Shown here one piece after another: positions 2,769-61,489 of a DNA stretch of 64,000 nt. Positions within the stretch are counted from its first letter, which is position 1; the number at the start of each line of letters is the position of its first letter. Source of the DNA: an uncultured Chitinophagaceae bacterium (GTDB lineage Bacteria > Bacteroidota > Ignavibacteria > UBA10030 > UBA8401). The stretch spans positions 8,713 to 72,712 of the forward strand of contig CAYPEM010000015.1 of the NCBI GenBank assembly GCA_964409765.1, written 5' to 3'. The position numbers and the translations under genes are program-made. The notes under the pieces were generated by a model. That model was not told the origin of the DNA and did not search any database. It saw only the letters and a program-made list of their open reading frames with translations.

Positions 2769-2780
2769 AGGGATTCAAAT

Positions 2781-39040: not shown

Positions 39041-39062
39041 AATATTTATGGTCAAAAAAGAA

Positions 39063-44310: not shown

Positions 44311-44606
44311 AGACTCATCTCCTGATAGAAAAAGGAAAATTTAAAATACGAATCTAATTTTTTTTGGCGAGCAGTTCATATAGACAAAAGAGATTTTTTA
44401 CCAGCAGCACTGTATCGATGGGATATTTTCTACCGCAATGTTAAGAAAAATTTGACAAATAAAGCAACTTTTAAATAACTATGCACAAAGTAAATAATTA
44501 TACACGTTTTTACAATTGCCTCATTACAGCGGATTTTCGCTTGTTTTTAACGGTGCAGACAATATTAAAACCGAAACTCAACATTCAATTCTCGAATTCG
44601 ATTGTA

Positions 44607-46394
44607 TTATTTCTGTAACACCATTTTTTTCGATTGCACAAATCCTCCTGAAACGATCCGATAGATATACACACCACTGGCAAGATTTGCTCCGGAGAAT
44701 TGATACGAATGGGTCCCTTCTTTCAATTCACCATCAACAACTGTTGCGATTTCTCTGCCTAACAGGTCGTAAATTTTTAACGATGTGTACAAACTGTTCT
44801 GCAAAGTAAACTGAATAGTTGTGACCGGATTGAATGGATTGGGATAATTCTGTTCAAGCGCAAAAGTGAATGGTGACAGAGCCTCTTCTTCTACACCTGT
44901 TACCACAAGATTGATCTTCGCAGTTGCTTCGCTTTCATTGTGTAATCTGTCGAATGCCGTCACCAGGTACGAGTATGATGTTCCGTTGACAACAGCATTA
45001 TCAACAAATCGGGTCGTATCATTCGTTGTAATTTTGATGATCTGTTTTATATTGTTGATATCAATTGTATCAGGCGACTGCGCACGATAAATTGCAAAAT
45101 ATTTGACACTATCATTGTCTGATGCGGTCCCCGGCTTTTGCCATTGCAATTGTACTGTATTATTGACAACTGTTGAAATTAGATTGACGGGAGCCAGAGG
45201 TGCAACGTTATCCAACCATGGCATTGTTGGATGCAGAGCAGTATACTTGAATTGATTTGCGCGGAGGGAATCTTGAACTCCTTTTAAATTTCCGGTCACT
45301 GATTTTGAACTGAATGCGACAAAACCCTCTGCACGATTCTTTATTCTGTTGGAATCAATTTGTCTCTGAATTTCCGACGCCGGCCAGTTACTTTCTGATG
45401 CTGATAAACGATACACTGCATTTCCGCTATAAAGATGTCGCTGGTAAAATTTTGTATAGGCAGACCACCACGGCATCAGAACGGCATAATTTTGAGCTGA
45501 ACTAAATGCCCAATACATTTGCGGTGTAAGATAATCCAACTTCTTATTTGAAAGCCAGTTTAACGGATCGCAATAGATTACGCTGTATGCATCAAGTCCC
45601 GGAACCGGTGTTCCGCTTTTCCAAATTCCAAACGGACTGATGCCAAATTTAACCCACGGTTTTACGGTTTTAATACTGTCATGCACCCGTGCAATAAATG
45701 TATTCACATTATTTCTGCGCCAGTCTGCAATATTATTGAATGATCCTTTATACGCAGAATAGGTGGCACTATCTTGAGTGGTCATTCCGCCATACGGATA
45801 AAAGTAATCATCAAAATGAACACCGTCAATATTGTATCGACGTACAACATCCATAATCACACTTAACGAATAATTTTGAACTGCTGGAATTCCGGGATCA
45901 AGAAGTTTATACGGACTTGCGCCGTAGGTGATATTCCAGGAGGGCTGCGTCTTTGAAATATGAGATGCATGGACACTGCTTCCCGAACCAACAACGGAAC
46001 GGTACGGATTGAACCAGCAATGTAATTCCATTCCTCGTTTATGTGCTTCATCGATCCAGAATTGAAGCGGATCATAATATGAACTTAAATTTCCTCCCTG
46101 CACTCCAACCAGCCATTCAGAAAGAGGCTCAAGTCCACCTTGATAAAATGCATCACACGACGGCCGAACCTGGAACAGGATGGCGTTGATATTGCTTTGT
46201 TTATGCTTATCAAGGATTGCAATTGCTTCTGCTTTTTGAGCGGACGCAGTTAAACTCTTGCTGGAAGGCCAATCGATATTCGAAACTGTTGCAACCCATG
46301 CGGCGCGAAATTCTCGCTTCGGCGGTTGAATTTGAGCATAGAATAGTGTCGTGAAAACAAGAGAGAGAGAAATAATTATATAGATTTTTTTCAT
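44607..46394 (-). CDS. glycoside hydrolase-like family 10 (GHL10/DUF187) protein with FN3-like domain and T9SS CTD
   Basis: About 595 aa from the ATG at 46394 (MKKIYIIISLSLVF). REFRAAWVATVSNIDWPS and HCWFNPY are typical of GHL10/YngK-like TIM barrels. FN3-like segment: PLAPVNLISTVVNNTVQLQWQKP...YFAIYRA. The CTD is EQNYPNPFNPVTTIQFTL ... SGVYIYRIVSGGFVQSKKMVLQK. Confidence 0.75.
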   Translation of the reverse strand: MKKIYIIISLSLVFTTLFYAQIQPPKREFRAAWVATVSNIDWPSSKSLTASAQKAEAIAILDKHKQSNINAILFQVRPSCDAFYQGGLEPLSEWLVGVQGGNLSSYYDPLQFWIDEAHKRGMELHCWFNPYRSVVGSGSSVHASHISKTQPSWNITYGASPYKLLDPGIPAVQNYSLSVIMDVVRRYNIDGVHFDDYFYPYGGMTTQDSATYSAYKGSFNNIADWRRNNVNTFIARVHDSIKTVKPWVKFGISPFGIWKSGTPVPGLDAYSVIYCDPLNWLSNKKLDYLTPQMYWAFSSAQNYAVLMPWWSAYTKFYQRHLYSGNAVYRLSASESNWPASEIQRQIDSNRIKNRAEGFVAFSSKSVTGNLKGVQDSLRANQFKYTALHPTMPWLDNVAPLAPVNLISTVVNNTVQLQWQKPGTASDNDSVKYFAIYRAQSPDTIDINNIKQIIKITTNDTTRFVDNAVVNGTSYSYLVTAFDRLHNESEATAKINLVVTGVEEEALSPFTFALEQNYPNPFNPVTTIQFTLQNSLYTSLKIYDLLGREIATVVDGELKEGTHSYQFSGANLASGVYIYRIVSGGFVQSKKMVLQK

Positions 46395-46496
46395 CAAATT
46401 TTCTGAGAAGTGATCGTGATCGGTGAACTTACTGAGGAAATGTACGGGATAAAGAATGACAATGCAATACAAAGTCGTAACACGTAAACTAAACAA

Positions 46497-46539
46497 CCAT
46501 GCGAATGTTCATTGAGTTATTTGATAAACCTTCGCATGG
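46497..46539 (-). terminator. possible weak terminator/attenuator hairpin between scaffold-like gene and GHL10 gene
   Basis: CCATGCGAA ... TTCGCATGG, perfect 9-bp arms with a long 25-nt loop. The minus strand continues TTGTTTAGTTT. It lies inside the unlikely N-terminal extension of the GHL10 track ORF. Confidence 0.3.
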
Positions 46540-46550
46540 TTTGTCTATAC

Positions 46551-49500
46551 TTATTTAAGTAACATCAATTTTTTTGTTTCGGTAAATGCTTTTTCACCAT
46601 TTGATATCACCGTCAGTTTATAAAAATAAACCCCTGTTGAGACAGTATTTCCTGCATCATCTTTACCATCCCACTCCAATTCATAAGTCCCAATCTGTTG
46701 GATTGTATTCACTAATGATCGAACCCGCTGACCTAACATATTATAAATATCGAGTGAAATATTTCCGCTATGCCCCAGAGTGTAGCGAATTTGCGTTGAT
46801 GGATTGAACGGATTTGGATAATTCTGCATCAGTGCATAATCGACTGCAATAAGAGGAATCCCCTGCGTATTTTTCTCAATATATTCTTTCTTTCCGGCAA
46901 TCAACCGGAAATTTCGGCGTGACTCATTCTTCACCATTGAAAATTCATAGAGATACGTATCGTCGATCTGCATAACGCGTTCAGTCATTTTGTCAACTAT
47001 ATAAATAACAAAATCATTTGGAATATTGCCGAGTTGTTCCAGATTCAATGAAATACGAGCCTGTGCTTTTGAAGTAACTACATCAAAATCCCAGAACAAG
47101 CCTTCGTTATTGATGGAGCGAATATCCAATGCATATGATCCACTCTGTTGTTTCCAAGAACTGTTTTGAAAACGTACCATCACATAATCCGTCGGTGATG
47201 GAGGCGGTTCAGCAACATCAAATGCATCAAATTCATTTTTCGCGCCTTTCGCTACACCCGCATAATTTTCTATATCGGAAGATTTTCCCGATGAGGCACC
47301 AATACTGATTCTCCACTCCGCTTCAGCATACGCCGCAACAGCATTTCCGGATTTTCCAAGACCGGTGATATCTTCAGGATTGATGTAAATGGTAACACTA
47401 TCACTTGAAAGATTCTTGACGAAGTACCCGGCGAATGGATCAAGCGCAAGGGATTCCGCTTTGAATGATTCACCGTCGAATTTCCAGATAAGATTCTGCG
47501 TTGAATCATGAAGTGAATTTTTCCAGCTCACTTTATACGGGAATGGATTACCGACCATAGAATATCCCGGACCAATCCTTATTGGATAATATGTTTGCAC
47601 TGGAATGATGGTTGAATTACCAAGACTGAGGCCAAACGCACCACGGGTGATCAACCAATACGCCTCACCTCGTTTGAAGGATGTGAATTTCTCATTTGGA
47701 AATTCGAGGTACTTCAATGTGGTTGGATTATATCGACCGAACAATCTCCACGATAACGGGCTCTGCTCGCCTAATCCTTTGAGAACTGATTCGACATCGT
47801 TATTATCAAGATCGAACGGAATACTGACCAATTGATATTGCTCATTCAATGTTTTATTTGGAAGTTTAACTTCGTAATCTTCCGTTACACTAAACACATT
47901 AATGGCAAACGTGAGATTATCTTTGATCGAAATATTCGGAACTGTTTGCTGACCGTTACTTTGAGCAGAAGATTGTGCCTTCCACATATCGGCATCACCC
48001 AACAATAGAATTTTCCCTTTACCGATCTTACTAAGCCCTGCGACAACAGGTTGCGTGCGGATTGGATTACCTATTGTTCTTCCATTCACAGTCGTAGTGA
48101 TCAAAGGAATTGCTGTGCCGGTAACAGTAACACTTGCACTTCCAAAAAACACCACCGTATCAACATTTGCAAAAAACGGGTGTTTGGCGTCTGCAAAGGT
48201 TGTCAATAATGGAGTTGCCGGGACAGAATAAAAACTCGACGAATCGACAACAAGATTTGAATCAAGTGAAAGATTCGTTGACCAAGATGTGTCTCTCAAT
48301 AACGAATTCAGTGCAGAGGTATTATTCCCTTCTATTGAGGAATTACCGAGTGCAACCACTAATCCACCGTTGAGTACAAATGTTTTTATTGAATCGATCT
48401 CCTGTCGTGAAAACTTCTTTTGGGGATTTATCAGCAAAAGAATATCATTTCCCGATGGACGCAGATCTGTCCCTGTGAGTGTAATTTGAATTCCGCTCTG
48501 TTCAAAGAAATTAAACAGCCGATTGACACCGCTTGTAGTATCTGTCAATGACAGGAACGAATTATGCAGCGTGTCAACCAATAATTTTTTTGTCACAGCC
48601 AGCTTTGCAATAGCTGAACCGTTAGCAGTCAACACTATCGTTTGATTTTTAGGATCGTTGGTAACGAAAACAAAAGCGGTAAATTGTCCGCCGACAGATT
48701 TAGGGTGATAGGTTATAGTGACTGTTTTTTGTGAACCAGGAGCAATCGATGATATTCCTGCTGTATCAAGAATAAAATTGGGATCCGGTGTTAAATTGAA
48801 TTCCGTAAATGCGGACACAGTTAAGGGAATATTACCTGTATTTGCAATCGTTGCAGATAATGATTTTGATCCGCCAAAATTAATTGAACCAAAATCAAAA
48901 TTGTTTTGAGAGATCGAAACCCTCGGAAAACCAAATACCGTAACAATTGCCGTGTCAAGATTAATAAGAAAACCATCGCTAACTGCTACAACAATTGTAT
49001 CTCTTCCTATCTGTGATACCGAAGGCTTCCATGAAAATGAACCATCAAGAAGAATAACTGCACCTGCAGGGAATTTCACAAATGAAAAAATGAGATTATC
49101 GTTGTCAGGATCGAATGCACTATATTTAAAATTCAATGTTGAATCGACCGGGAAATTAATATCGGGAAGTGTTGAAGTAAATTGCGGTCGTAGATTGTTA
49201 TTTTGAACCGTAATGATCGCTGTATCCAATATACCACCTGAACCATTGGTGACACCTACAATAATGAGATGCTGTCCACCCTGAAAATTAGCCGGTGTCC
49301 ATTGTAACAGTCCTTTTGGTGAAACAGTTAAACCTTGAGGACCAAGGAATAGACCAAATATCAATGTGTCTGATACATTGACACTCGAAGCTGAATATTG
49401 AAATGAAAATTGATTGTTTACTTTAATCGTCGTATCGGGAAGTGTCTTTGTAAAGAATAACGGACTATTACTTTTTAACACCAAGATATGTGCAGTATCG

Positions 49501-51749
49501 GTCACGATCGATTTTCCATCGTTCAATTGCACATATACATAAAATAATCCTGTTTGATTCTGGAATGCTTTGAAAGTAAAGTTTCCATTGTTGTCTATAC
49601 TTGCGCCTGGCGGACTATTCAACAAAGAATATGAAAAGATTTCATTATCAAGATCGATGGCTGAATATTTAAATGACAGTTTTGTTGTGTCATATATAAT
49701 CGTATCCCTTAAAACTGAAATAAACTGCGGTGGGCGATTCGTATTAACGACATTAATGTTCGTCTGTTTTGATGCATTCCCCCCCTTGCCATCCACAGCG
49801 AATACGACAAAACTGTGGAGCCCGGCTTGATTGAAGTTTGGCCTCCAATTCAGCATACCGGTTACTGTATCTATTGTCATTCCCAGTGGTTGATTTTGCA
49901 AAAAGAATTTTATTTGATCGTTGTCGGGATCGGATGCATCGTAATCAAACGACAATTGTTGATCTTCATTGATCGTTACATCACCCATTGCATTAGTAAA
50001 GAAAGGATTCGTATTCAATGAGGGAAGAATCGTGATCGATCCATTCTTCAGTGTGGTCGTCGGTTGAACCGGTGACGGTTCATTATTCTGATATTCAATA
50101 AAGTTCAACGGAGAAGCTTGTCCCGGAATTGTAAACTGTTTGTGATGGAACCGTAGTTTTGCAAAAATTCCTTTCCCTGAAATAGGTATTGTTCCGGCAA
50201 ATGCCATACTAACAATTGAACCGGAATCTTTTACAGCCGGAACCATTCCGACACTGATCGTCCCTGCCGTGATTAATTCCGAGAACCGCACTTTTGCAGT
50301 GTCATAACTTATTTTTATTTGTGTCGACAGAATACCAAGACCGGTAACATCAGAAATATAAATTGGAACATCGACCGAATCACCCACGCGAACCGTCGTA
50401 TCTGGTATACCTGCAAAAAAATCGTTGATCTTGATTGTAAATACTCCATCGAATCCTTGAGCATCAAAAACTTTTAGTGTATCAATTCCTTTTGATATTG
50501 CTTTAAACTTTCCTGTAAGGGAATCAATAACTGCTTTTGTTGTATCTGATACAAACCATTTGTATGGAGAAGTACCTCCTAGAGCAGTGAAGGTCAGCGT
50601 ATCTCCTTTTGTCACTACTTGAACATTTGGCTTAAGTGTGATTACCGGTCCTTGTATCGGCGAAAATATACCATTGTCAACGGTTGCAGTCATCGATTCA
50701 TTAAAAAGAATATTCTGCAGATCAAGATTCGAATTTTGAGTTGCGAACCGTTTCACTTGAAAACGAACATATGCCAAAATACCTTTACCGGTGAGTGTAT
50801 CGGAACCCGCCATTGCAACATCCATTGTTCCTAATCCATAATTAACAGTCGGCACTCCCCATGATTGTGCTAACGTCCCGGCAGTGAATACACCTTTTGG
50901 CACAAGAGAGTTTGTATTATAGTTCAATTTCCATTGCGCTGAAATGATCCCAAGCGAAGTGACATCGGAAACTCGAATCGGAAGATCAAACGTAAGGTTT
51001 TGCATGAACGACGTATCAGGAATAGTCATTGTTAAACTATTCAACGAAGGAGAGTTGATCGGAAATATGTTTGACTGATCGAACAATCCTTGCGAATCTA
51101 AAACTTTTACAAATGTTTGACCAACTTTTTTCCCAACAAATTTTCCTAAAGAATTAATAGACGCAATGGATGTATCGCCTACACTCCAAATAACAGGCAG
51201 ATTTAAATCTCCTGTGACCGAAAAGAGTATCGAATCACCGACAACTTTATTTTGCGGCGGGTTTTTAGGATTGATAAAAATATCCATCGGACGGAATGAA
51301 CCATTTTGTAAAGCGACGGATGGTGTTCCCTCGTTCAGTTTTGCGATAGAGAGACTGAATTGTTCAGTGATATTAGGCTGAGCAGCCATATTAACAACAA
51401 TCATCAAATAAAATAGAACACCCTTTCCGGTGATCGGTTCTGCAACGGAAAATGCGATCTGTTTTGTTGCTGCGTTGAATAGAACATTTTTCCCATTGAG
51501 CAGTGTTCCTACCGTATCAATTCCAATCACGGTAAACACATTGTTTGGCACATAAGTAAATTGTCCCGCAACAACAGAATCCGATGTTTTCAACGAATCA
51601 TCACAATAGATCGGGTAGGCATATGTTGCGCCACGTTTACCAAATCCACTATACAAACGAAGATGAACAGAATCGATCTGTGCGTACACTGTTGTGGTAC
51701 ACACAGCAGTCAACAGGGCGATAAATAAATAGAAGAATGATTTTTTCAT
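46551..51749 (-). CDS. giant T9SS cargo: scaffold-like protein with 3 cohesin-like, 2 Big_2-like and 4 cadherin-like modules, plus an HYDIN/choice-of-anchor-D-like module and a GldG/DUF4350-like module
   Basis: 1732 aa with an ATG start and a signal peptide ending VYAQ. See the module features below. The CTD is MQNYPNPFNPSTQIRYTL ... TGVYFYKLTVISNGEKAFTETKKLMLLK. Confidence 0.9.
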   Translation of the reverse strand: MKKSFFYLFIALLTAVCTTTVYAQIDSVHLRLYSGFGKRGATYAYPIYCDDSLKTSDSVVAGQFTYVPNNVFTVIGIDTVGTLLNGKNVLFNAATKQIAFSVAEPITGKGVLFYLMIVVNMAAQPNITEQFSLSIAKLNEGTPSVALQNGSFRPMDIFINPKNPPQNKVVGDSILFSVTGDLNLPVIWSVGDTSIASINSLGKFVGKKVGQTFVKVLDSQGLFDQSNIFPINSPSLNSLTMTIPDTSFMQNLTFDLPIRVSDVTSLGIISAQWKLNYNTNSLVPKGVFTAGTLAQSWGVPTVNYGLGTMDVAMAGSDTLTGKGILAYVRFQVKRFATQNSNLDLQNILFNESMTATVDNGIFSPIQGPVITLKPNVQVVTKGDTLTFTALGGTSPYKWFVSDTTKAVIDSLTGKFKAISKGIDTLKVFDAQGFDGVFTIKINDFFAGIPDTTVRVGDSVDVPIYISDVTGLGILSTQIKISYDTAKVRFSELITAGTISVGMVPAVKDSGSIVSMAFAGTIPISGKGIFAKLRFHHKQFTIPGQASPLNFIEYQNNEPSPVQPTTTLKNGSITILPSLNTNPFFTNAMGDVTINEDQQLSFDYDASDPDNDQIKFFLQNQPLGMTIDTVTGMLNWRPNFNQAGLHSFVVFAVDGKGGNASKQTNINVVNTNRPPQFISVLRDTIIYDTTKLSFKYSAIDLDNEIFSYSLLNSPPGASIDNNGNFTFKAFQNQTGLFYVYVQLNDGKSIVTDTAHILVLKSNSPLFFTKTLPDTTIKVNNQFSFQYSASSVNVSDTLIFGLFLGPQGLTVSPKGLLQWTPANFQGGQHLIIVGVTNGSGGILDTAIITVQNNNLRPQFTSTLPDINFPVDSTLNFKYSAFDPDNDNLIFSFVKFPAGAVILLDGSFSWKPSVSQIGRDTIVVAVSDGFLINLDTAIVTVFGFPRVSISQNNFDFGSINFGGSKSLSATIANTGNIPLTVSAFTEFNLTPDPNFILDTAGISSIAPGSQKTVTITYHPKSVGGQFTAFVFVTNDPKNQTIVLTANGSAIAKLAVTKKLLVDTLHNSFLSLTDTTSGVNRLFNFFEQSGIQITLTGTDLRPSGNDILLLINPQKKFSRQEIDSIKTFVLNGGLVVALGNSSIEGNNTSALNSLLRDTSWSTNLSLDSNLVVDSSSFYSVPATPLLTTFADAKHPFFANVDTVVFFGSASVTVTGTAIPLITTTVNGRTIGNPIRTQPVVAGLSKIGKGKILLLGDADMWKAQSSAQSNGQQTVPNISIKDNLTFAINVFSVTEDYEVKLPNKTLNEQYQLVSIPFDLDNNDVESVLKGLGEQSPLSWRLFGRYNPTTLKYLEFPNEKFTSFKRGEAYWLITRGAFGLSLGNSTIIPVQTYYPIRIGPGYSMVGNPFPYKVSWKNSLHDSTQNLIWKFDGESFKAESLALDPFAGYFVKNLSSDSVTIYINPEDITGLGKSGNAVAAYAEAEWRISIGASSGKSSDIENYAGVAKGAKNEFDAFDVAEPPPSPTDYVMVRFQNSSWKQQSGSYALDIRSINNEGLFWDFDVVTSKAQARISLNLEQLGNIPNDFVIYIVDKMTERVMQIDDTYLYEFSMVKNESRRNFRLIAGKKEYIEKNTQGIPLIAVDYALMQNYPNPFNPSTQIRYTLGHSGNISLDIYNMLGQRVRSLVNTIQQIGTYELEWDGKDDAGNTVSTGVYFYKLTVISNGEKAFTETKKLMLLK
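48930..50015 (-). repeat. four tandem ~91-aa cadherin-like/He_PIG-like repeats
   Basis: Each unit begins with an N-x-x-P-x-F motif (NTNPFFTNAMGDVTI, NRPPQFISVLRDTII, NSPLFFTKTLPDTTI, NLRPQFTSTLPDINF). Most contain an acidic DxDxD-like cluster (SDPDNDQIKF, FDPDNDNLIF) and a W-x-P motif (LNWRPNFNQAG, LQWTPANFQGG, FSWKPSVSQIG). Confidence 0.7.
50025..50420 (-). other. cohesin-like module 3
   Basis: aa ~444-575: IPDTTVRVGDSVDVPIYISDVTGLGILSTQIKISYDTAKVRFSELITAGTI...ISGKGIFAKLRFHHKQ...LNFIEYQNNE. This parallels the GDTVxIPVxF...G...xFxxSYDxxxLE...GVFAxIxxKVK pattern of clostridial cohesins as recalled. Confidence 0.6.
50655..51035 (-). other. cohesin-like module 2
   Basis: aa ~239-365: LTMTIPDTSFMQNLTFDLPIRVSDVTSLGIISAQWKLNYNTNSLVPKGVFTAGTL...LTGKGILAYVRFQVKRFATQNSNLDLQNILFNE. 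Confidence 0.55.
51285..51677 (-). other. cohesin-like module 1 of the 1732-aa protein
   Basis: aa ~25-155: VHLRLYSGFGKRGATYAYPIYCDD...VVAGQFTYVPNNVFTVIGIDTVGTLL...ITGKGVLFYLMIVVNM...LNEGTPSVALQNGSF. It shows a cohesin-type pattern: exposed strand pair, x-Y-D/N-x-x-x-L/F, and GKG-hydrophobic-F/Y-x-hydrophobic. Confidence 0.45.
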
Positions 51750-51770
51750 TGTAGTAATAATTATCGAACG

Positions 51771-54700
51771 TTATTTCAACAACAGCATTTTTTTTGTATT
51801 CACAAAAACATTCTTTCCTTGTGATTGTGCAATGATCTTATAGAGATAGACTCCGCTGGAGACCGATCTATTATTATCATCCGCGGCATTCCACATCAGT
51901 GAATAATATCCCGCGCTTTGTTCCGTGCTGATCAGAGTTTTTACGATTTGTCCGATCATATTATAGATCGTGATAGTGACATAGCTTTCTTTCGGCAATT
52001 GATAACTGATTGTTGTTGCAGGATTAAATGGATTTGGATAATTCTGCTTGAGATCGAATACTGTCGGGATCACAGAGGGATCGTTTAGAGCAAGAGAAAT
52101 TCCACCAAAATCCTTAGCATAATCTTTTTCATTCAAAACAAATCTATCCATTGTAAAAACAATAGCATCAGTTGCAATAGCTGGATCCTTTACCGTGAAC
52201 GTGAATTGAGCAATATCTCCGGCAGTGTTCAATGGTTTAATTCCAGCCAATGCGAAATTTGCTGTCCCACGCGGGAAAAAATATGACATCATCATACTAT
52301 CGGTCAAAGCGGTTTGTTTCATGGTTTTTGGAACAATGACCGAAGAATCAAAGTGTAAACTCATGGTAATACCAAACACCTGTGATGGTTTGGTCACCGA
52401 AACATACATAGTATATTCACCTGTTGTTTGCGTTGGAGCAATTCTGAACGAGAATGCCGAGAACACGGCACTGGGTTGAGAATGTTTTCCAAGTCCGCCG
52501 GGAAAAGAGTTGATAAGTCCGACAACATATTGCAAAATCAATGATGCATCCGTTGATGAAATGGTGGAATCACCGCTGACATTTCCTACTCGTTTTTGTA
52601 CGGTATCAATCACAATTGCCCCGACTTCATTACGCAAAATCATTCCGGCATCGAATGATGTGATTGCTCCATTTCCACTCACATCTCCAAAACGAAATAC
52701 TTTGACAAGTACCGTATCATAGACATAAGAAAAACCGTCCGTTAACTGTACGATAAAACTAAATAATCCATTTGCATCAACCGGCGGATTCCATTGTAAA
52801 TCCCCCGTCGCCGATAATGTTGCCCCGGGTGGTGACACAAATAATGAAAAAGAGAGTTGCTGACTATCAGGATCAAATCCCGTGTAATGGAATCGAAGGG
52901 TATCAAACCTCGCAACGGATGTATCCGGCATTGTTTTAGTGAACAGTGGCAAATTATTAATATCGGTAACTGTAATAACAGCAGTGTCCAGCGCAAATCC
53001 GCCGAATTTATCAACTGCCAACACAATTACTGTCTCTATTCCTGCCTGTGAATATGATGGCTGCCATTGAAGATTACCCAATGCTGAAACCCACAACCCG
53101 GGCAAAGGAGTTAATGTTGCAAACGATACGGTGTCAAGATCAAAATCATCAGCAGAATAATTAAAGGTGAGCAATTGATTTTCTGTAATTGTCGTATCCG
53201 GTAATACTGATGTGAATACCGGAAATTGGTTAAGATTAAAAACGACAAATACAACCTCCTTAAAATCAAATGCATCTGATGGATCTTTTGCCTTAAAAGT
53301 CGAAGAGTAATTACCCGATTGTGTTAAATTCGGTGTCCATTGTATAAGTCCTGAAATTGAATCGACAGTCATTCCCGGTAAAAGAGAAACTGCGTAATAC
53401 TTCAGCGAATCGCCATCCGCATCAATAGCATCCATATCGAACGAAAAATTTTGGTTTTCTAGAAGATAAAACGTATCGGGAAAAGCAGTAGTAATGAGTG
53501 GAGCAAGATTGATATTGTTTACTGTTATCGTAAAAGAATGAGTCGCTGTACCATTTTCCTTACTATCAGTGATAACTATTGTTATCGGATAGATTCCGGC
53601 AAGTGAATTATCCGGTGTCCACGAAATTAAACCCGACATTGAATCCAATGTGAGCAGTGGTGGTTGGCCTGATTGAATGAAATATTTTACAACATCACTA
53701 TCCGGATCTGGTGCAACGATACTTACACTATATAATTGTCCTTCAACAATTATTGTATCATTAGGTACAATAGAAAATACTGGAGTCCGATTTGAATCGA
53801 CAACAGCGAATAATTGAGGATGAGAAGCACTTCCTCCAAAGAGGTCATGCGCTTCGATGACTCCAAGACGCATACCGGAATCCAGAAATGATGGGGTCCA
53901 AGTCATTTGTCCTGTAACGGAATCAATGGTCATCCCGCCTGGTGCTCCAATCAACGAATAATACACTGTATTAAGATCCGGATCATTTGCGGTTACTGTA
54001 AATGAAAATGCAATTCCTTCTTTTACAAAAAATGTGTCCGGAAAAATGGGGGAAAACGATGGTGGAAGATTTACGTTACTCACTGTTATAGTCAGTTGAT
54101 GCAGTGTAGTCTGACCGTTTCCATCATCGGCTGTTATTTCAAACACATATTCATTGGCACTTGCAAAAGAGGGTGTAAATAAAAATTGTCCGGTTATGGA
54201 ATCGATAGAAGCCTCATTCGCCGGAGCAGGATTTGTCGTTAAAAAATAATGCACAGTATGTCCGTTTGCATCGGTAGCGAAGAACAGTTTTGAATAAACA
54301 TCTCCTTCTTTTATTGTTGTGTCGGACGGTGTATTGACAAATACCGGCGGAGAGTTTGGGATCGGATCAACAGTCAATGATCCATCAACGTATGCGCCAT
54401 TAATACTTTCATTGACAATAAATTTTGTAAAGTGCAGAGTTTGAAAAGCAGAATTGACAATCGTTGATGTTGAGACAAACCGAAGTTTTAAAAAGAGTTG
54501 CTCATCGGTCACTCCTATCGGATTAATAGCAGCAACTCCGATTTTAAGCGTATCATATAGTTGATTAAACACTACAGACATAGAAGTTGTTAATGAGCTA
54601 TCGCTGTTTAATCCGATAAATTTAAAAAGGGTTGTATCATACGGTAGCGAAATATCGGCAGACAATAGACCAAGCAACGGAGAATTGTTCGAATAGAAGA

Positions 54701-55061
54701 CCCGGACTTCTGCGGTGTCGCCGTCTATAAACGTTGTGTTCTCAATTCGTGTTTTAAAAGCAAATGTACTGATCATTTGACTTCCGAAATTGCTTACACT
54801 GTCATTCACCGTAATTGTCACATTCGAGACCGATGTCATTACAACGACTTGAGCATCGGTTGCATTCAACGACGTAACAATCACTGAAGCTGGATGACTT
54901 GATGACCACGCATACGGTGCAGTTCCACCGGATGCAGTGATTGTTAGTGTATCGCCGATTTGAAGCGTTGATGGTAATCCATTAATACTTAATACTGGTT
55001 CAGCAAATGCAAAGACAATTCCACAACTAAGACATACTAGAGTGGTAAACAATATTTTCAA
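51771..55061 (-). CDS. giant T9SS cargo: Big_2-like + cohesin-like + 6 cadherin-like repeats + dockerin-like + cohesin-like + CTD
   Basis: 1096 aa with a TTG start (no in-frame ATG nearby) and signal peptide MKILFTTLVCLSCGIVFAFA. It begins 28 nt after the upstream gene and ends 21 nt before the next. The CTD is KQNYPNPFNPATTISYQL ... SGVYLYKIIAQSQGKNVFVNTKKMLLLK. Confidence 0.9.
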   Translation of the reverse strand: MKILFTTLVCLSCGIVFAFAEPVLSINGLPSTLQIGDTLTITASGGTAPYAWSSSHPASVIVTSLNATDAQVVVMTSVSNVTITVNDSVSNFGSQMISTFAFKTRIENTTFIDGDTAEVRVFYSNNSPLLGLLSADISLPYDTTLFKFIGLNSDSSLTTSMSVVFNQLYDTLKIGVAAINPIGVTDEQLFLKLRFVSTSTIVNSAFQTLHFTKFIVNESINGAYVDGSLTVDPIPNSPPVFVNTPSDTTIKEGDVYSKLFFATDANGHTVHYFLTTNPAPANEASIDSITGQFLFTPSFASANEYVFEITADDGNGQTTLHQLTITVSNVNLPPSFSPIFPDTFFVKEGIAFSFTVTANDPDLNTVYYSLIGAPGGMTIDSVTGQMTWTPSFLDSGMRLGVIEAHDLFGGSASHPQLFAVVDSNRTPVFSIVPNDTIIVEGQLYSVSIVAPDPDSDVVKYFIQSGQPPLLTLDSMSGLISWTPDNSLAGIYPITIVITDSKENGTATHSFTITVNNINLAPLITTAFPDTFYLLENQNFSFDMDAIDADGDSLKYYAVSLLPGMTVDSISGLIQWTPNLTQSGNYSSTFKAKDPSDAFDFKEVVFVVFNLNQFPVFTSVLPDTTITENQLLTFNYSADDFDLDTVSFATLTPLPGLWVSALGNLQWQPSYSQAGIETVIVLAVDKFGGFALDTAVITVTDINNLPLFTKTMPDTSVARFDTLRFHYTGFDPDSQQLSFSLFVSPPGATLSATGDLQWNPPVDANGLFSFIVQLTDGFSYVYDTVLVKVFRFGDVSGNGAITSFDAGMILRNEVGAIVIDTVQKRVGNVSGDSTISSTDASLILQYVVGLINSFPGGLGKHSQPSAVFSAFSFRIAPTQTTGEYTMYVSVTKPSQVFGITMSLHFDSSVIVPKTMKQTALTDSMMMSYFFPRGTANFALAGIKPLNTAGDIAQFTFTVKDPAIATDAIVFTMDRFVLNEKDYAKDFGGISLALNDPSVIPTVFDLKQNYPNPFNPATTISYQLPKESYVTITIYNMIGQIVKTLISTEQSAGYYSLMWNAADDNNRSVSSGVYLYKIIAQSQGKNVFVNTKKMLLLK
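52074..52466 (-). other. cohesin-like module following the dockerin-like module
   Basis: FSFRIAPTQTTGEYTMYVSVTKPSQVFGITMSLHFDSSVIVPKTMKQTALTDS...ANFALAGIKPLNTAGDIAQFTFTVKDP...IVFTMDRFVLNE. The pattern match is weaker than for the scaffold modules. Confidence 0.4.
52503..52688 (-). other. dockerin-like module (duplicated F-hand)
   Basis: GDVSGNGAITSFDAGMILRNEVG-(linker)-GNVSGDSTISSTDASLILQYVVGLINSFPG. These are two Ca-loop plus helix segments matching the type I dockerin pattern D-x-N/S-x-D/N-G-x-I/V-x-x-x-D-x-x-x-L. Confidence 0.65.
52692..54356 (-). repeat. six tandem ~93-aa cadherin-like/He_PIG-like repeats
   Basis: Units start at aa ~236, 330, 423, 517, 610 and 702 (PPVFVNTPSDTTI, NLPPSFSPIFPDTFF, NRTPVFSIVPNDTII, NLAPLITTAFPDTFY, NQFPVFTSVLPDTTI, NNLPLFTKTMPDTSV). 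Most have an acidic cluster (ANDPDLNTVYY, APDPDSDVVKY, AIDADGDSLKY, FDPDSQQLSF) and a W-x-P motif (MTWTPSF, ISWTPDN, IQWTPNL, LQWQPSY, LQWNPPV). Confidence 0.75.
54366..54764 (-). other. cohesin-like module (N-terminal) of the 1096-aa protein
   Basis: aa ~100-232: FAFKTRIENTTFIDGDTAEVRVFYSNNSPLLGLLSADISLPYDTTLFKFIGLNSDSSL...EQLFLKLRFVSTSTIVNSAFQTLHFTKFIVNE. Confidence 0.5.
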
Positions 55062-55089
55062 TAGAAGTACTTTCTCTTATGGTTGACCA

Positions 55090-58000
55090 TTATTTAACAA
55101 GGACCATTTTTTTAATCTGGGTAAAATGTTCTTTACCATTATAGCGTACATCAATTCGATAGAGATATACTCCGCTCGCAATCGATCGATTATCATTATC
55201 GGTACCGCTCCATTGAACCGTATAAAAACCTGCCGATTGCTGCTCATGAATCAGAGTTTTCACTTCTTGACCAAGCATATTATAGATCAATATTCTTACA
55301 TTACCGTCCTGAGGAATCTGATATTTGATCGATGTAACCGGATTAAATGGATTCGGATAGTTTTGTGACAATCCAAACGTTGTTGGAACATCGGTAATAT
55401 CTTCCACATTCAATATGATAGAGCCCACATCGGTGGTCAAATCATTTTCATTTATGACAAACTTCTTTACCGAGAAGATTGATTGCTGCTTAGCTTTTTC
55501 AGGATCACGAAGAATAAATGCAAATCGTATCACATCCCCTTCCGATTTCAAAGGTTTTGTTCCTGCCATTGCAACATGTGCAGAACCACTCGGGAAATAA
55601 GACACCATCGTCATACTATCGGTTTCGATTGTCTTTTTCATACCAACCGGAATAACCAATGTTGTATCAAATGAAAGATTAACATTCAGTCCAAATACAT
55701 TGGATGGCTTTGTAAGACGAATGATCAGATCATATTCGTTTGGATTTTTTCCTTTCTCAATGGAAAATGCAAATGATGAAGCAATATCGGCATCGTATGA
55801 TTGTTTCCCAAGTCCAGGAAATCCTGAGATCAATCCTACAACATAACGTAAAATGTATGAAGCATCAAGTGCACTGACCGTTGTATCACCGCTGACATTG
55901 GCAGCAATTTTTTGCGGTGTAGTAAGATTATGATTGATTGGATCGACTAAAAACTGCAAGATCATAGAACCATCAAATGCCGAGATTTGCCCGTTGCGGC
56001 TTACATCACCGGGTAAAATTCCTGATCGTGTGGTGAGGAATGGATCCCAATTAACATCCCCTGTACCGGAAATAAAAATCTGATTTCCTAATCCTGAAAG
56101 ATTTGATCTATTCGCTCCGGTCGCAGGACCGGTTATTTTTTTAGGACCGGTCACAGCTCCCCAATAATTATTTTGTGCATTGGTATTTACTCCGGTAGAA
56201 GACGAATAAAGTCCATAGGTAGTATTCTGATAAATATTATTGCCATTAATTGTTGGAACATTTGACCCGCTGACATATATTCCGCTCGCATTGTGATGAA
56301 TTTCATTTCCGACAACCATGGAAGGAGAATTATTAAACTGTATTCCCCATGTCTTTGCGTATGATACAAATGATGATTCGATCGATGCAGAAGATTGGCT
56401 TAAGTTCAATGAACCGGTATTGGATAAATCTCCATATCGAACAATGGTATTAAAAAAACGAGAACCGTTTGTTGTCGAGCCGGATAGTTGGATTCTATTC
56501 CAATCACCGGGAGCGGGAACTGTGGAAGCAGTGTCCCGATTCGTGTCATCTCCGTATGTATCATCCTTCCATGAAGTGAAAACGATCTTATTATTTGTCG
56601 TTCCTTCCGAAAGCAATGTTCCATTCACCAGAACATATCCGTTGCCGTATTCTTTGGGAAATTTAATGACGCTGCCGGGTGCAATCCGAAGTGTATCTCC
56701 TGATGCAACATTGAGATCACCCCGCACAGCAATAACCTTGGAATAGTTCGGTGGTAATGATGAGCCCAATCTCCCAAAGATGTTTTCTTGTGTCAGCATA
56801 ACATCATTGTACGTATTCCCAAGTATAACATTATTGTCATAGAAATTGCCCAATGCTGTACCGGTGCCGGCAAGTGATAGTTGTCCGATCAGTCCAATGG
56901 CATATCGGTTTCCTGAAATAGAATCATCGATCATATATGCTCTCGATGAAAATATTCCTGCGAGACCGTTATTCCGAACTTTATTTCCTGCGATCATTAA
57001 TAGCGTATCAATCGCATCATTACGAGCAAGTAAATACATTCCATGATCACCATTACTATTGATGGTATTACCAATCACGGACAGTGAGATAGTGTTGTTT
57101 TCAATGTAGAATCCTGTTTTTGTATTGTTAGAGATAATACAATTCGAGAGCACAGAGAGATTAGCAGGGCTTTGCACCCACACTCCGTAAAGGTTGTTTT
57201 TAATAATTTTTGAACTTCGTATTGATACTGTGTTAGATGCATTGGCACCAACATGAATACCGGATTCAGCACAACTATCAACAACAGTACTATCGATGAT
57301 GATTGGTGTACTATTCACATAAATCCCTGAGGACATTGATCGTCGCACCAAATTATTTGAAAAAGTTAATGCCCCAACATTCGTTTCAAAAAAGACTGTT
57401 TTTTGTCCATCCCTTCCGCCATATTTAAATTGACAATTTCTGACAATCGAAGATCCACTGCCATTACGAAAAGCAATATAATTCCAGTCTCCGGGTGCGG
57501 GCGGAACAAAATCCGTTTGAGAAGTTGTTTTTCCACCAACAGTACTATCCCTCCATGAAGTAAAAATTATCGGCTTTATCTGAGTTCCATTTGCAATCAA
57601 CGTACCGTAGACGTTGAATTGCTGCCAGTTATTTGCAGGTATCTGTTGGAATTTGATAATGACACCGGGTTCAATGACCAATGTTGTAGCTGCCGCCACT
57701 TCGAAATCATAAAGAGCAACGTACGTTTTGGAAGAAATGGCTAGTGGGAATGTTGCTTTTAAAGTATCTGAAATTTCTGCGTCCCATATAGCAATTGCAT
57801 TATAGACATTATTTGAAATAATATTTCCGTCCACACCGCTCGGATCTGTATAAATATTTCCGGTTCGCCTCCACACCGCAAGCGGAAATCGGTTTCGTTG
57901 TATGGTGTTATCAATAAAAGTTGCCCGACTGCTCAAAATACCTTCCTCTGCATTGTCGGTAATGGTATTGCCGACAAATCGAAGATTCGCAGGAAGAATC

Positions 58001-60741
58001 GGAGGACTGTTTGTATAAATCCCTCCATTAGCATTATTGGTTATCGTGTTTCCTTGATACACCTGATCGATAGTGCCATTCGAAGTACCAATTCCCCATC
58101 CATTATTTCTTCGAATGAAACAATTGGATACTTCACGGAATGCAGAATTATTTACTGCCTGCAAACCAGCGCCGTTATTATCCTGTATTATGCTGTTTCT
58201 CACAGTTATGTCGGATGGTCTATTTCCCGCTACATATACTCCATACGATGCATTGCTATCAAGTGTGATATTGTCAAAAGTAATCTGACAATCACTAATA
58301 TATATTCCCATCGATCCTGATTTTCTGCTAATGATATTTGTGATCGGATTTGCAAGAACGATATCATTGGTCATATATAAATTGCCAACACCATCCTGTC
58401 CGCCATATTTAAAAATGCAATTGTTGAATTTACTGCCGCTTGACGTGTTAGTATAGAGACGAACATAACGCCAATCAAGCGGTGCGGGTGCAGAATTATC
58501 AGAAAGAAGGTTGGTTTTCCCTCCATACGATGCATCTCGGTACGATGTAAAGACTATAGGATCTGTAGGCGTACCGCTAGCGATCAAGGTTCCATCAACT
58601 CGGAAATATATTGAAGGATACATTTTAATGATCACCCCGGGTTGAATAACCAGTGTTGTACCGTTATCCACAACAACTGAAGAATTAATATCAATAAGCA
58701 CATAGGTCTTTGAAGTAATTCCGGCAGGGAAAATTGTGCTCAGGGTATCTTGTAAACTTTCTTGAATTCGGTTGGCACGAAGTCCCAAGGCATTGTTATA
58801 TTGATTTCCAATAATAGTATTCCCGCTATAAGTACTATTAACTCGTCCTATTAAAGAAATTGGGTAGCTGTTTCCCTGAATAAGATTATTTGTGATATAA
58901 GCTTTTGAAGTAATAATCCCCTCTGCACCGTGATTAATGATCTTATTGCTGTCAATTGTTACAACAGAATTTACATTAAAACACCATATGCCGTAACCCG
59001 CTCCATTTCCCTCTATACGATTATAGGCAATTGTTTGAGCACCAGTACCGTACCAGAGATATATTCCGCCATTCGTGTTAAAAGAAATTACAGAGCTATC
59101 CAATGAAATGAGCGTTGCACTCGAAGCTCCTCCATCAGCAACAATACCATAGGTGTTACCGGACATGATTGACTTACGCACATTAAAGCGAGAATTTCCT
59201 GCTGCATAAATACCGTATGATCCATTACTGGATATCGTCGATTTATAAATAGAAGGATTAGAGCTTGGAATAAAAATTCCATATGTACTATTTGAACTAA
59301 AGGTTGAGTTTGTAACCGTAGAATTTGCACCACTATTTAAATACAATCCATAGTTTGAACTTTGAGTGCTATAGATACTATCGATAATTGGCGATGCACC
59401 ATCGACCCGAACATTTCCGTTTCCAGTTGAACCACCCCATTTGAAAATACAATTGTTCAAAACACTGGTGTTGTTTTGGGCAGCATTGAGCCATACCATA
59501 TCCCAGTTTCCTCTTGCGGGACCTGTAACACTACTATCGCCATTTGTATCACCGCCATAGGAATCGTCTCTTTCTGATGTAAAGACTACTAAACTGTCTG
59601 AAGTTCCAGTTGCGTCAATCGATCCGCTCACAGTCAATCGTACACCAAGTGCAAATTTAACGATCACTCCAGGTTTAATAGTAAGCTTAAACGTATTGTT
59701 CACAGAAATATCATTCTTTATCCAAAATACTCCGCTGGTCCAAGTTGTGTTGGCCGTAATATTTCCGGTCACAGGAATATAAGGTGATACTGGTGCAAGA
59801 ATTGTCCACGGTTGAAAATCAACAAGGTTGCTTACCTTATCTCCTAAACCAGTAGGGTTGTTGCTTGAATTATATGGTCCAGCATCACTCCCCCAATAAT
59901 TTCGTCGTGCTAAAACCGTTGTTGATGTACTGGTATTGAGAAATCCCCATGTAATATTATTGATGATCGTATCTTGTGTGATTGTTGGCTGCGTGGCTCC
60001 AACACCGGTAAATTGAATTCCAACATTATTACGACGAATATAATTTTTAGTGATTGTTGGAGCAGCACTGTTACTGATAAAAATTCCAATACCATTTGAA
60101 TCAACAGCAGAATTAGTAATTGTCGCTGTTGAATTCACACCTATAAGTACGCCACCAGTAGTATTATTGGAAATTGTACACGAGTCAACAGTATAGTTCA
60201 ACGATAAATCGGCAAAGATTCCATATCCTCCATTTTGTGTAAGAACAGTATTTGAAATGCGAGGAGATGACGACCGGGCATTAATACCGTGGCTGGAACT
60301 ATATTGGATTATTGAATTGGAGATATTAATAGCGGGAGCACCAGTTTTATAAAAAATATTTCCGGCATTTGGTCCACCGCCTGCAAACTCGACAATACAG
60401 TAATTGATCATTGAAGAAATAAGCGCAGAAGCCTGAAGTTCAATTCCATTCCAGATTCCGGGAAAGGGCACACCTGCATTCGAAGTGAACAGGATCAAAC
60501 TGTCCGATTTACCGTTAGCAGAAATCTTCCCTGCCACCGCAAGCATTTTACCCGTATTGAACTTTACGGTTGTGCCTGGTTTAACCGTCAGTGTAATGCC
60601 GACAGGTACAAATACTGAATCCGCAATAACTATTCCGGACCACGTCGTATCCGATATAATTGCACCGGACACAGTTTGTGCAGAAGAATTATTGAGAGCA
60701 AGAACTAATACTATGGACAACCAAAGTATCAAACGATTCAT
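55090..60741 (-). CDS. giant T9SS cargo: five right-handed parallel beta-helix (NosD/CASH-like) super-repeats + dockerin-like + cohesin-like + CTD
   Basis: About 1883 aa from the ATG at 60741 (RBS AAGGGTGA; the track start TTG at 60768 adds 9 aa). Signal peptide: MNRLILWLSIVLVLALNNSSAQ. Many short beta-helix turns are present (N-x-I-x-x-N-x-x-x-G-I). NYWG..GP motifs occur after repeats 1 and 5. The CTD is SQNYPNPFNPVTSIKYQI ... SGVYLYRIDVRYNGKEHFTQIKKMVLVK. Confidence 0.9.
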   Translation of the reverse strand: MNRLILWLSIVLVLALNNSSAQTVSGAIISDTTWSGIVIADSVFVPVGITLTVKPGTTVKFNTGKMLAVAGKISANGKSDSLILFTSNAGVPFPGIWNGIELQASALISSMINYCIVEFAGGGPNAGNIFYKTGAPAINISNSIIQYSSSHGINARSSSPRISNTVLTQNGGYGIFADLSLNYTVDSCTISNNTTGGVLIGVNSTATITNSAVDSNGIGIFISNSAAPTITKNYIRRNNVGIQFTGVGATQPTITQDTIINNITWGFLNTSTSTTVLARRNYWGSDAGPYNSSNNPTGLGDKVSNLVDFQPWTILAPVSPYIPVTGNITANTTWTSGVFWIKNDISVNNTFKLTIKPGVIVKFALGVRLTVSGSIDATGTSDSLVVFTSERDDSYGGDTNGDSSVTGPARGNWDMVWLNAAQNNTSVLNNCIFKWGGSTGNGNVRVDGASPIIDSIYSTQSSNYGLYLNSGANSTVTNSTFSSNSTYGIFIPSSNPSIYKSTISSNGSYGIYAAGNSRFNVRKSIMSGNTYGIVADGGASSATLISLDSSVISFNTNGGIYLWYGTGAQTIAYNRIEGNGAGYGIWCFNVNSVVTIDSNKIINHGAEGIITSKAYITNNLIQGNSYPISLIGRVNSTYSGNTIIGNQYNNALGLRANRIQESLQDTLSTIFPAGITSKTYVLIDINSSVVVDNGTTLVIQPGVIIKMYPSIYFRVDGTLIASGTPTDPIVFTSYRDASYGGKTNLLSDNSAPAPLDWRYVRLYTNTSSGSKFNNCIFKYGGQDGVGNLYMTNDIVLANPITNIISRKSGSMGIYISDCQITFDNITLDSNASYGVYVAGNRPSDITVRNSIIQDNNGAGLQAVNNSAFREVSNCFIRRNNGWGIGTSNGTIDQVYQGNTITNNANGGIYTNSPPILPANLRFVGNTITDNAEEGILSSRATFIDNTIQRNRFPLAVWRRTGNIYTDPSGVDGNIISNNVYNAIAIWDAEISDTLKATFPLAISSKTYVALYDFEVAAATTLVIEPGVIIKFQQIPANNWQQFNVYGTLIANGTQIKPIIFTSWRDSTVGGKTTSQTDFVPPAPGDWNYIAFRNGSGSSIVRNCQFKYGGRDGQKTVFFETNVGALTFSNNLVRRSMSSGIYVNSTPIIIDSTVVDSCAESGIHVGANASNTVSIRSSKIIKNNLYGVWVQSPANLSVLSNCIISNNTKTGFYIENNTISLSVIGNTINSNGDHGMYLLARNDAIDTLLMIAGNKVRNNGLAGIFSSRAYMIDDSISGNRYAIGLIGQLSLAGTGTALGNFYDNNVILGNTYNDVMLTQENIFGRLGSSLPPNYSKVIAVRGDLNVASGDTLRIAPGSVIKFPKEYGNGYVLVNGTLLSEGTTNNKIVFTSWKDDTYGDDTNRDTASTVPAPGDWNRIQLSGSTTNGSRFFNTIVRYGDLSNTGSLNLSQSSASIESSFVSYAKTWGIQFNNSPSMVVGNEIHHNASGIYVSGSNVPTINGNNIYQNTTYGLYSSSTGVNTNAQNNYWGAVTGPKKITGPATGANRSNLSGLGNQIFISGTGDVNWDPFLTTRSGILPGDVSRNGQISAFDGSMILQFLVDPINHNLTTPQKIAANVSGDTTVSALDASYILRYVVGLISGFPGLGKQSYDADIASSFAFSIEKGKNPNEYDLIIRLTKPSNVFGLNVNLSFDTTLVIPVGMKKTIETDSMTMVSYFPSGSAHVAMAGTKPLKSEGDVIRFAFILRDPEKAKQQSIFSVKKFVINENDLTTDVGSIILNVEDITDVPTTFGLSQNYPNPFNPVTSIKYQIPQDGNVRILIYNMLGQEVKTLIHEQQSAGFYTVQWSGTDNDNRSIASGVYLYRIDVRYNGKEHFTQIKKMVLVK
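55396..55785 (-). other. cohesin-like module following the dockerin-like module
   Basis: FAFSIEKGKNPNEYDLIIRLTKPSNVFGLNVNLSFDTTLVIPVGMKKTIETDS...AHVAMAGTKPLKSEGDVIRFAFILRDP...SIFSVKKFVINE. It is paralogous to 52074-52466. Confidence 0.4.
55816..56010 (-). other. dockerin-like module (duplicated F-hand)
   Basis: GDVSRNGQISAFDGSMILQFLVDPINHNLTTPQKIAANVSGDTTVSALDASYILRYVVGLISGFPG. It is paralogous to 52503-52688. Confidence 0.65.
56029..60666 (-). repeat. five ~300-345-aa super-repeats within the beta-helix protein
   Basis: Anchor motif x-L-x-I/V-x-P-G at aa 59, 361, 705, 1029 and 1359 (TLTVKPGTTVKF, KLTIKPGVIVKF, TLVIQPGVIIKM, TLVIEPGVIIKF, TLRIAPGSVIKF). Repeats 2-5 continue with G-T/S-L/I-x-A-x-GT...I-V/I-FTS-x-x-D-x-x-x-G-G/D-x-T-N, PAPGDW/PAPLDW/PARGNW, and C/T-I/Q-F/V-K/R-Y/W-G-G/D. 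Repeat 1 has a degenerate form (AGKISANGKSDSLILFTS, FPGIWNGI, CIVEFAGG). Confidence 0.8.
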
Positions 60742-60794
60742 TGTAATCACCCTTTCGACAATATCCAATTATGAAATATCAAGTACATTTTTTC

Positions 60795-60835
60795 TTAATA
60801 AAAAATAACAGATTACTATAATCTGTACTGTTATT
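60795..60835 (-). terminator. rho-independent terminator after rfbC
   Basis: The minus strand reads AATAACAG(TAC)AGATT-ATAG-TAATCTGTTATT followed by TTTTATT. The hairpin is imperfect and lies about 105 nt after the rfbC stop. Confidence 0.5.
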
Positions 60836-60939
60836 GCAATCACATTTATAATAATTATTTCAGCTTTTTTTTTGCTTCGTTTAATGAAAGTCCAGGGAAG
60901 GTGTGTTGTAAAACTGGCAATTTTACAGCAATAATGCAA

Positions 60940-61488: not shown

Positions 61489-61489
61489 C

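Follow-up and report, generated by a model that had tools for sequence, protein, structure and literature searches.

Cohesin and dockerin modules on three adjacent T9SS cargo proteins suggest a nonenzymatic surface assembly in an uncultured Ignavibacteria-type bacterium

Can a diderm bacterium assemble proteins on its outer membrane with cohesin and dockerin modules, as clostridia do in their cellulosomes? The question is raised by three consecutive genes, here called A, B, and C, of an uncultured bacterium labeled Chitinophagaceae and placed by GTDB in the Ignavibacteria. They lie on the minus strand of a 64,000-nucleotide (nt) stretch of contig CAYPEM010000015.1 (assembly GCA_964409765.1, positions 8,713 to 72,712; hereafter the window). 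An earlier note had read them as back-to-back genes for giant secreted proteins of about 1883, 1096, and 1732 amino acids (aa), in which a possible cellulosome-style code of six cohesin-like and two dockerin-like modules was combined with the sorting domain of the T9SS (type IX secretion system). The open reading frames (ORFs) bear out this layout, and every sequence string quoted in the note is present. Counted from a TTG, the ORF of gene A (55090-60768) has 1892 aa; its likely start is the ATG at 60741, which opens a typical signal peptide and gives 1883 aa. Genes B (51771-55061; 1096 aa) and C (46551-51749; 1732 aa) follow after gaps of 28 and 21 nt, and from these gaps alone we infer that the three are co-transcribed. 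All three proteins have N-termini that read as signal-peptide-like.

What are the modules? Together, the proteins carry six cohesins (one in A, two in B, three in C) and two dockerins (in A and B), at scores far beyond chance; all coordinates given for them are on the minus strand. Each protein ends in a type A T9SS C-terminal domain (CTD) that reaches its last residue and scores above the TIGR04183 cut-off of 23 bits (A, aa 1797-1892, 55093-55380, 35.4 bits; B, aa 1001-1096, 51774-52061, 30.8 bits; C, aa 1637-1732, 46554-46841, 33.3 bits), and profiles of these domains match the solved CTDs of the FlgD type and of PorU. The dockerins lie at aa 1587-1652 of A (55813-56010) and aa 791-855 of B (52497-52691). 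As isolated modules they pass the PF00404 cut-off of 22.9 bits (28.8 and 28.1 bits, respectively), the match being borderline in the full-length proteins, where they score just under it (22.7 and 20.6 bits); a family dockerin hidden Markov model (HMM) gives 90.4 bits for A, and the family profile matches solved dockerins (4uyq_B, E=7.5e-15). Both consist of the duplicated F-hand segment of ~22 residues, in A DVSRNGQISAFD and NVSGDTTVSALD, and their residues mark them as probably of the calcium type: loop positions 1, 3, 5, and 12 are D, S, N, and D in repeat 1 and N, S, D, and D in repeat 2 of both proteins, Ser being an accepted ligand at position 3 of an EF-hand loop. AlphaFold2 (AF2) models the B dockerin as three helices, with predicted local distance difference test (pLDDT) scores of 95-98.

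For the cohesins, Pfam recovered only half of the six that the earlier note had counted. The tail cohesin of B (aa 869-988; 52098-52457; 24.3 bits) and modules 2 and 3 of C (aa 238-363, 50661-51038, 37.1 bits; aa 447-574, 50028-50411, 47.4 bits) pass PF00963 (cut-off 24.1 bits), whereas the N-terminal, scaffold-type cohesin of B (aa 104-231; 54369-54752) falls below it at 17.1 bits, and the tail cohesin of A (aa 1665-1788; 55405-55776) and module 1 of C (aa 26-153; 51291-51674) go undetected by single-sequence search. All six are nevertheless joined by family HMMs and by profile-profile comparison of family alignments built from database relatives. The tail-cohesin HMM gives 90.4 bits for the A module and the cohS3 HMM 57.7 bits for the B N-terminal module; C's three modules are linked to one another with 99.8-99.9% probability (99.9% for module 1 against modules 2 and 3 by hhalign) and to the tail-cohesin family of A and B with 99.2-99.5%. 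In the tri-cohesin profile, module 1 aligns end to end with 2vn5_A (E=9e-7) and 1g1k_A (E=3e-6); module 3 matches 3ul4_A, 5nrm_A, and 4ums_A; and the tail cohesin profile finds 2xdh as its best solved cohesin (E=1.6e-13). The fold was checked by structure for one of the six, the tail module of B: an AF2 model of its dockerin, cohesin, and CTD, built from a 100-sequence alignment, has a pLDDT of 91, the cohesin is a beta-sandwich with strands at ~91-98, and the top 50 Foldseek matches of the dockerin-cohesin model in the PDB were all cohesins (50/50). Unrelated immunoglobulin (Ig) or carbohydrate-binding module (CBM) folds, an outcome for which the earlier note had allowed, were rejected on these matches. 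Pairwise identity among the six cohesins is 19-42%, with the A and B tail cohesins at 42%, and the two dockerins differ at positions that are known to set specificity in clostridial dockerins; both kinds of divergence are compatible with distinct binding specificities.

How are the modules arranged? In A, the signal peptide is followed by five tandem right-handed beta-helix blocks (Pfam Beta_helix 211.9 bits, NosD 113.2 bits), an FTS motif marking the repeats at aa 94, 396, 740, 1069, and 1397; the beta-helix region has no sequence relative in the PDB at E<=1e-3. B runs from its signal peptide through a Big_2-like domain and the scaffold-type cohesin into about six He_PIG/cadherin-like repeats (He_PIG 125.8 bits, Big_9 102.4 bits). 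The last three modules of both proteins are a dockerin, a cohesin directly after it, and the CTD; we abbreviate this tail Doc-Coh-CTD. C has a signal peptide, a Coh-Big2-Coh-Big2-Coh region, four cadherin-like repeats, an ASH/DUF1573 domain, a DUF4350/GldG-like domain, an unassigned region, and the CTD; neither Pfam nor the family HMMs found a dockerin in it. The stretch that precedes its CTD (aa 1073-1636; 46842-48533), made up of the DUF4350/GldG-like (GIFT-type) domain and ~380 aa with no family match, is 60-81% identical in close relatives, and it may be with this part that the protein binds a substrate or a surface. An exact-sequence look-up of protein C returned no identical record.

Is this arrangement shared by other genomes? 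The N-terminal 580 aa of C, the Coh-Big2-Coh-Big2-Coh region, defines a family of T9SS proteins, most of them 668-970 aa long and ending in a CTD, and on the contigs of these relatives a 1,812-1,880-aa gene with beta-helix, dockerin (and cohesin), and CTD stands immediately upstream of the tri-cohesin gene. We scanned GTDB species representatives with the tri-cohesin gene alone as anchor, using a 6-sequence alignment where a 17-sequence version had proved too diverse, and annotated the resulting 23 loci with custom HMMs and BLAST; with loci from contig look-ups, this gave 24 nonredundant evaluable loci. The co-occurrence that the earlier note had proposed to survey is strong: at 23 of the 24, the multi-cohesin gene has a Doc-Coh-CTD gene on the same strand as its immediate upstream neighbor (A-like in 20, B-like in 3), and in the exception (L001) the Doc-Coh-CTD gene lies two genes further upstream. 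The usual partner is a beta-helix protein of 1,800-1,970 aa, and at the 20 loci with A-like genes the beta-helix identity to the window's A ranges from 31 to 83%. One locus (L013) repeats the A, B, C order of the window. At the closest loci, C is 63-70% identical and RmlA up to 93%. Close relatives keep the whole neighborhood in synteny, whereas in distant genomes the genes flanking the pair differ. Because tri-cohesin relatives are mostly small and adjoin A-like genes, the minimal partner of A is a small three-cohesin T9SS protein; what the window's C has beyond this, its cadherin, ASH, and DUF4350 parts, was added in a lineage-specific way. At three loci (L016, L019, and L030), gene A is absent and the C-like protein has two cohesins rather than three, the first being missing; the gene order there is rmlA-rmlC (L016 and L019 only), B-like, C-like. 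This joint absence hints that the A dockerin pairs with cohesin 1, although it may reflect a single evolutionary event.

Several GTDB-representative records with a locus of the Ignavibacteria type are filed under Chitinophagaceae (L010, L030), Synechococcus sp. UW140 (L013), Prosthecochloris vibrioformis (L021), and Actinomycetota (L029), which are probably labeling or binning errors. The last of these (JAACEJ010000190.1, 1-6642), a metagenome-assembled genome (MAG) contig of doubtful taxonomic label, encodes a large scaffoldin-like protein that is truncated by the contig edge; it is at least 2213 aa long, contains eight or more cohesins in tandem, and has a tail that weakly resembles a CTD.

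What might the three proteins do together? Type A CTDs route folded periplasmic cargo through the T9SS, and in studied Bacteroidota many T9SS cargo proteins are then attached to the outer membrane; the binding of dockerins to cohesins depends on calcium. On this pattern, A, B, and C would be Sec-exported T9SS cargo whose CTDs direct outer-membrane crossing and which, judging by the family, probably end attached to that membrane. C and the N-terminal cohesin of B would then offer free cohesin sockets, and A and B would each carry one calcium-type dockerin plug near the membrane-proximal end. These dockerins would bind in trans to C's cohesins, and possibly the A dockerin to the tail cohesin of B and vice versa; beta-helix and cadherin-like proteins would thereby be cross-linked into a nonenzymatic assembly at the surface, for instance a coat with an adhesive or protective role. 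We hold this reading at an even balance of belief and doubt. What argues for a plug-and-socket partnership in trans is the conserved adjacency of Doc-Coh-CTD and multi-cohesin genes, and to that extent the earlier note's view of C as a scaffold and of A and B as its clients stands, given that the adjacency recurs in more than 20 species-level genomes.

Several observations weigh against such an assembly. Each dockerin has its own adjacent cohesin and may be occupied by it in cis. A and B also have CTD anchors of their own, so that a scaffold is not needed to retain them, and Pfam searches of A, B, and C recognized no catalytic domain to explain the assembly's purpose. Among orthologs, conservation is highest in the dockerin (49-86%), lowest in the tail cohesin (24-31% in distant orthologs), and between the two in the scaffold cohesins; with the dockerin conserved and the cohesins drifting, no clear signal of coevolution emerges from these comparisons. 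Finally, all of the relatives are MAGs.

Are the dockerins of A and B free to reach another protein? The wider distribution of the tail bears on this question. A search with the 314-aa tail of B matched ~100 protein clusters over nearly its full length, from MAGs labeled Ignavibacteriales, FCB (Fibrobacteres-Chlorobi-Bacteroidetes) group, Marinimicrobia, Zixibacteria, and Bacteroidota. An exhaustive phmmer search of 1.84 billion representatives with the Doc-Coh part found 291 50%-identity cluster representatives at E<=1e-10. Doc-Coh was matched as a single stretch in 94 of the 150 best representatives, mostly stopping ~100 aa before the C-terminus, and many of these 94 are A-like proteins of 1,770-1,970 aa. 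The N-terminal parts of cassette-bearing relatives vary (beta-helix, PKD, CarboxypepD_reg, FGE-sulfatase, VCBS, laminin-G, and others), and the junctions are fixed: a median of 4 aa beyond the model ends separates dockerin from cohesin (n=245), and a median of 4 aa separates cohesin from CTD (n=231), the CTD reaching the final residue. The Doc-Coh-CTD tail is a prefabricated cassette common to many FCB-group cargo proteins. For the tail of B, AF2 gives a predicted template modeling score (pTM) of 0.88 for Doc-Coh and 0.83 for Doc-Coh-CTD, with linker pLDDT of ~80. Because the cohesin makes up only ~60% of the two-domain construct, the pTM of 0.88 suggests a rigid cis dockerin-cohesin unit, and AF2 likewise predicts the three domains together as rigid.

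Two database observations touch the cassette. L002 (1-10972) has a 323-aa ORF made up solely of Doc-Coh-CTD, which shares a 4-nt overlap with a 3847-aa ORF; either a frameshift has split one giant cargo gene, or the short ORF is a cassette gene in its own right. In many other database proteins, 5-10 dockerins akin to this type follow one another in tandem (P0156, P0162-P0167, and others).

The rigid, fixed geometry of the tail could mean that the dockerin binds or packs on its own tail cohesin for good, forming a stiff membrane-proximal foot or an extended T9SS sorting or attachment module, by analogy with other T9SS cargo, in which an Ig-like domain stands before the CTD. There would then be no code between proteins, and the cohesins of C would bind something else or serve as spacers. 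Such a cis-locked tail would fit the pTM and linker scores, the spacing of dockerin, cohesin, and CTD that is invariant across 231-245 proteins, the joining of the cassette to many unrelated passenger domains across phyla, and the rapid evolution of the tail cohesin, as might be expected of a structural partner. It leaves unexplained, however, why a dockerin-less three-cohesin T9SS gene almost always stands next door and why B has an extra, scaffold-type cohesin, and its rigidity is judged from pTM and pLDDT rather than from interface geometry. Mean-field direct coupling analysis of 222 Doc-Coh sequences, run for cis contacts, was uninformative, the top interdomain couplings (Doc 35-37 with Coh 130-133) being adjacent-column blocks such as shared indels typically produce. 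A permanently locked tail is the main rival to the assembly in trans, but we consider it rather unlikely, at about half the weight that we give the latter.

The cis and trans models can also be combined, such that self-capped plugs are handed over after export. Doc-Coh-CTD would then be a general surface-assembly tag of the FCB group, the dockerin being parked on its own cohesin during export and later transferred to free cohesins. After T9SS processing, the recipient would be the three-socket C or the tail cohesin of the next molecule, and the cargo would polymerize into a calcium-dependent cohesin-dockerin lattice, an S-layer-like modular coat in diderms. We think this broader scheme unlikely, and less probable than the locked tail.

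Could the assembly in trans instead organize enzymes? The "cellulosome-style" of the earlier note would, in its strict sense, make the locus a multienzyme complex for polysaccharide degradation, with A as a lyase or hydrolase and C as the enzyme-integrating scaffoldin. Many right-handed beta-helices are polysaccharide lyases or hydrolases, and a similar proposal has been made for Cloacimonadota (PMC8542988). Downstream of C, moreover, and syntenic in close relatives, are a GHL10 glycosyl-hydrolase-like gene with a T9SS CTD (44607-46496, minus strand, 54 nt after C; present at this position also in L010 and L011) and a gene for a SusC-like TonB-dependent receptor. But A matched only the generic Beta_helix and NosD models and no carbohydrate-active enzyme family, and has no PDB sequence relative; B consists of Ig- and cadherin-like repeats; and the passengers of the cassette are mostly binding or repeat domains (PKD, CarboxypepD_reg, VCBS, and laminin-G), FGE-sulfatase being one exception. 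An enzyme-organizing cellulosome is thus quite improbable: neither A nor B has a recognized catalytic family, a dockerin is absent from the GHL10 protein, and Pfam found no CBM family on C. The term "cellulosome-style" fits the assembly logic only.

A final alternative, about as improbable as the enzyme complex, is that the modules are inert: cohesin and dockerin folds would be structural or calcium-stabilizing spacers in giant adhesins, and the gene adjacency would reflect a shared adhesive function or co-regulation. Most noncellulosomal cohesin and dockerin modules have no demonstrated partner (PMC9012536), and no enzyme cargo was recognized here. Yet both module types are kept together at loci whose beta-helix regions share just 31-57% identity, the calcium-loop residues of the dockerins are preserved, and those noncellulosomal pairs that have been tested do bind, among archaea according to literature cited in PMC9012536 and among clostridia according to PMC4611034. 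Of the readings considered, the T9SS-displayed assembly in trans is the best supported.

What surrounds the three genes? They belong to a long co-directional run, with genes for a hybrid histidine kinase, rmlA, and rmlC upstream. Downstream, the GHL10-like gene and the SusC-like receptor gene are followed by two more genes for CTD proteins and one for an outer-membrane barrel of the PorV/PorQ family (38030-39100, minus strand; NF033709 199 bits, cut-off 90), then by a pair of genes for an ADP-heptose-type kinase and a transferase, and by TamB. Six T9SS type A cargo genes fall within a 25-kb co-directional run (35363-60768) that includes the barrel gene. The barrel may be a dedicated shuttle or attachment paralog; it is the T9SS machinery found in the window, core genes such as SprA/PorU lying outside it. 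A promoter and terminator scan of 44000-61600 found sites no more numerous than in shuffled sequence, and two antisense ORFs within gene A had no support. Elsewhere the window consists of ordinary chromosomal genes (carA, a dap operon, RND efflux, radA, RNase R, and TamB), and on this ground a mobile-element or viral origin was rejected. A lysine riboswitch (1722-1910, plus strand; RF00168 68.5 bits) lies directly upstream of dapB-dapA-dapD (2010-4510).

Why would such an assembly matter? If docking is real, the outer membrane of diderms joins Gram-positive and archaeal surfaces as a site of cohesin-dockerin assembly, and T9SS anchoring and plug-and-socket assembly are united in a widespread uncultured lineage. 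The presence of the cassette on hundreds of cargo proteins could explain how FCB-group bacteria organize giant surface proteins, and new orthogonal cohesin-dockerin pairs might be drawn from it for displaying proteins on the surface of Bacteroidota. Together, the conserved genes A and C form a small, well-defined, and testable system.

How does the locus compare with known systems? By profile and fold, its modules belong to the same two families as those of the type I clostridial cellulosome (e.g., C. thermocellum CipA; PDB 1OHZ, 2CCL), and as there, a dockerin-less multi-cohesin protein (C) stands beside dockerin-bearing proteins, B resembling an adaptor scaffoldin with both cohesin and dockerin. 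Unlike the clostridial system, the host here is a diderm, a type A CTD takes the place of SLH domains or sortase, no catalytic module or CBM was recognized, and every dockerin directly precedes a cohesin. The junctions of the cassette are short and fixed, in contrast to the long flexible linkers of clostridial scaffoldins.

Noncellulosomal cohesins and dockerins, including those of archaea and C. perfringens, are already well documented. The best solved match of the tail cohesin by both sequence profile and fold is the Archaeoglobus fulgidus cohesin 2XDH, and the systems of A. fulgidus, the C. perfringens GH84 toxin complexes (2JH2, 2O4E, 2W1N), and R. bromii Amy4 share with A and B the presence of cohesin and dockerin on one polypeptide. 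These systems differ in belonging to monoderms or archaea and in mostly carrying enzymes, and none has a T9SS tail or the fixed Doc-Coh-CTD order. The literature on Ignavibacteria, Melioribacter, and Latescibacteria with cohesin or dockerin holds, in our searches, no description of such a system. Cellulosome-like genes were reportedly once noted in Latescibacteria. The genome paper of Melioribacter roseus reports no cellulosomal components (PMC3534657), and dockerins have been noted in rumen Bacteroidetes (PMC6487960). The Amy4 dockerin recognizes its own cohesin and can multimerize, an experimental precedent for self- and cross-recognition (PMC4611034). In anaerobic methanotrophic (ANME) archaea, Chadwick et al. 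(2022) proposed that scaffoldin-like multi-cohesin proteins organize surface proteins and cell-cell contacts, a function that is unproven (PMC9012536); these too are noncellulolytic organisms with multi-cohesin proteins, but with an S-layer context, substrate-binding-protein cargo, and no T9SS.

The closest idea in print comes from 'Ca. Stygibacter' (Cloacimonadota), for which Williams et al. (2021) inferred in silico that a cohesin-rich scaffoldin with a T9SS-type CTD holds dockerin proteins at the cell surface (PMC8542988). The idea is thus less novel than the earlier note took it to be, a CTD-anchored scaffoldin with dockerin enzymes having already been inferred there (PMC8542988) and NCBI already naming relatives of the present proteins 'cohesin domain-containing' or 'dockerin type I domain-containing' proteins. 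Like our locus, 'Ca. Stygibacter' is an FCB-group diderm with a CTD-bearing cohesin protein known from sequence alone; its dockerins are on GH18, GH57, and peptidases, and its scaffoldin has CBM2/CBM3 (PMC8542988). Here, in contrast, the clients are beta-helix and cadherin-like proteins with their own CTD and cohesin, and the evidence includes gene adjacency across many genomes. In the literature that we searched, neither the Doc-Coh-CTD cassette nor the beta-helix/tri-cohesin gene pair is described, and we found no experiment on any T9SS-linked cohesin-dockerin system. Thus, while the parts and the general idea are known from these systems, the novelty lies in the fixed cassette, in nonenzymatic clients that each bring an anchor and a socket of their own, and in the strongly conserved gene pair.

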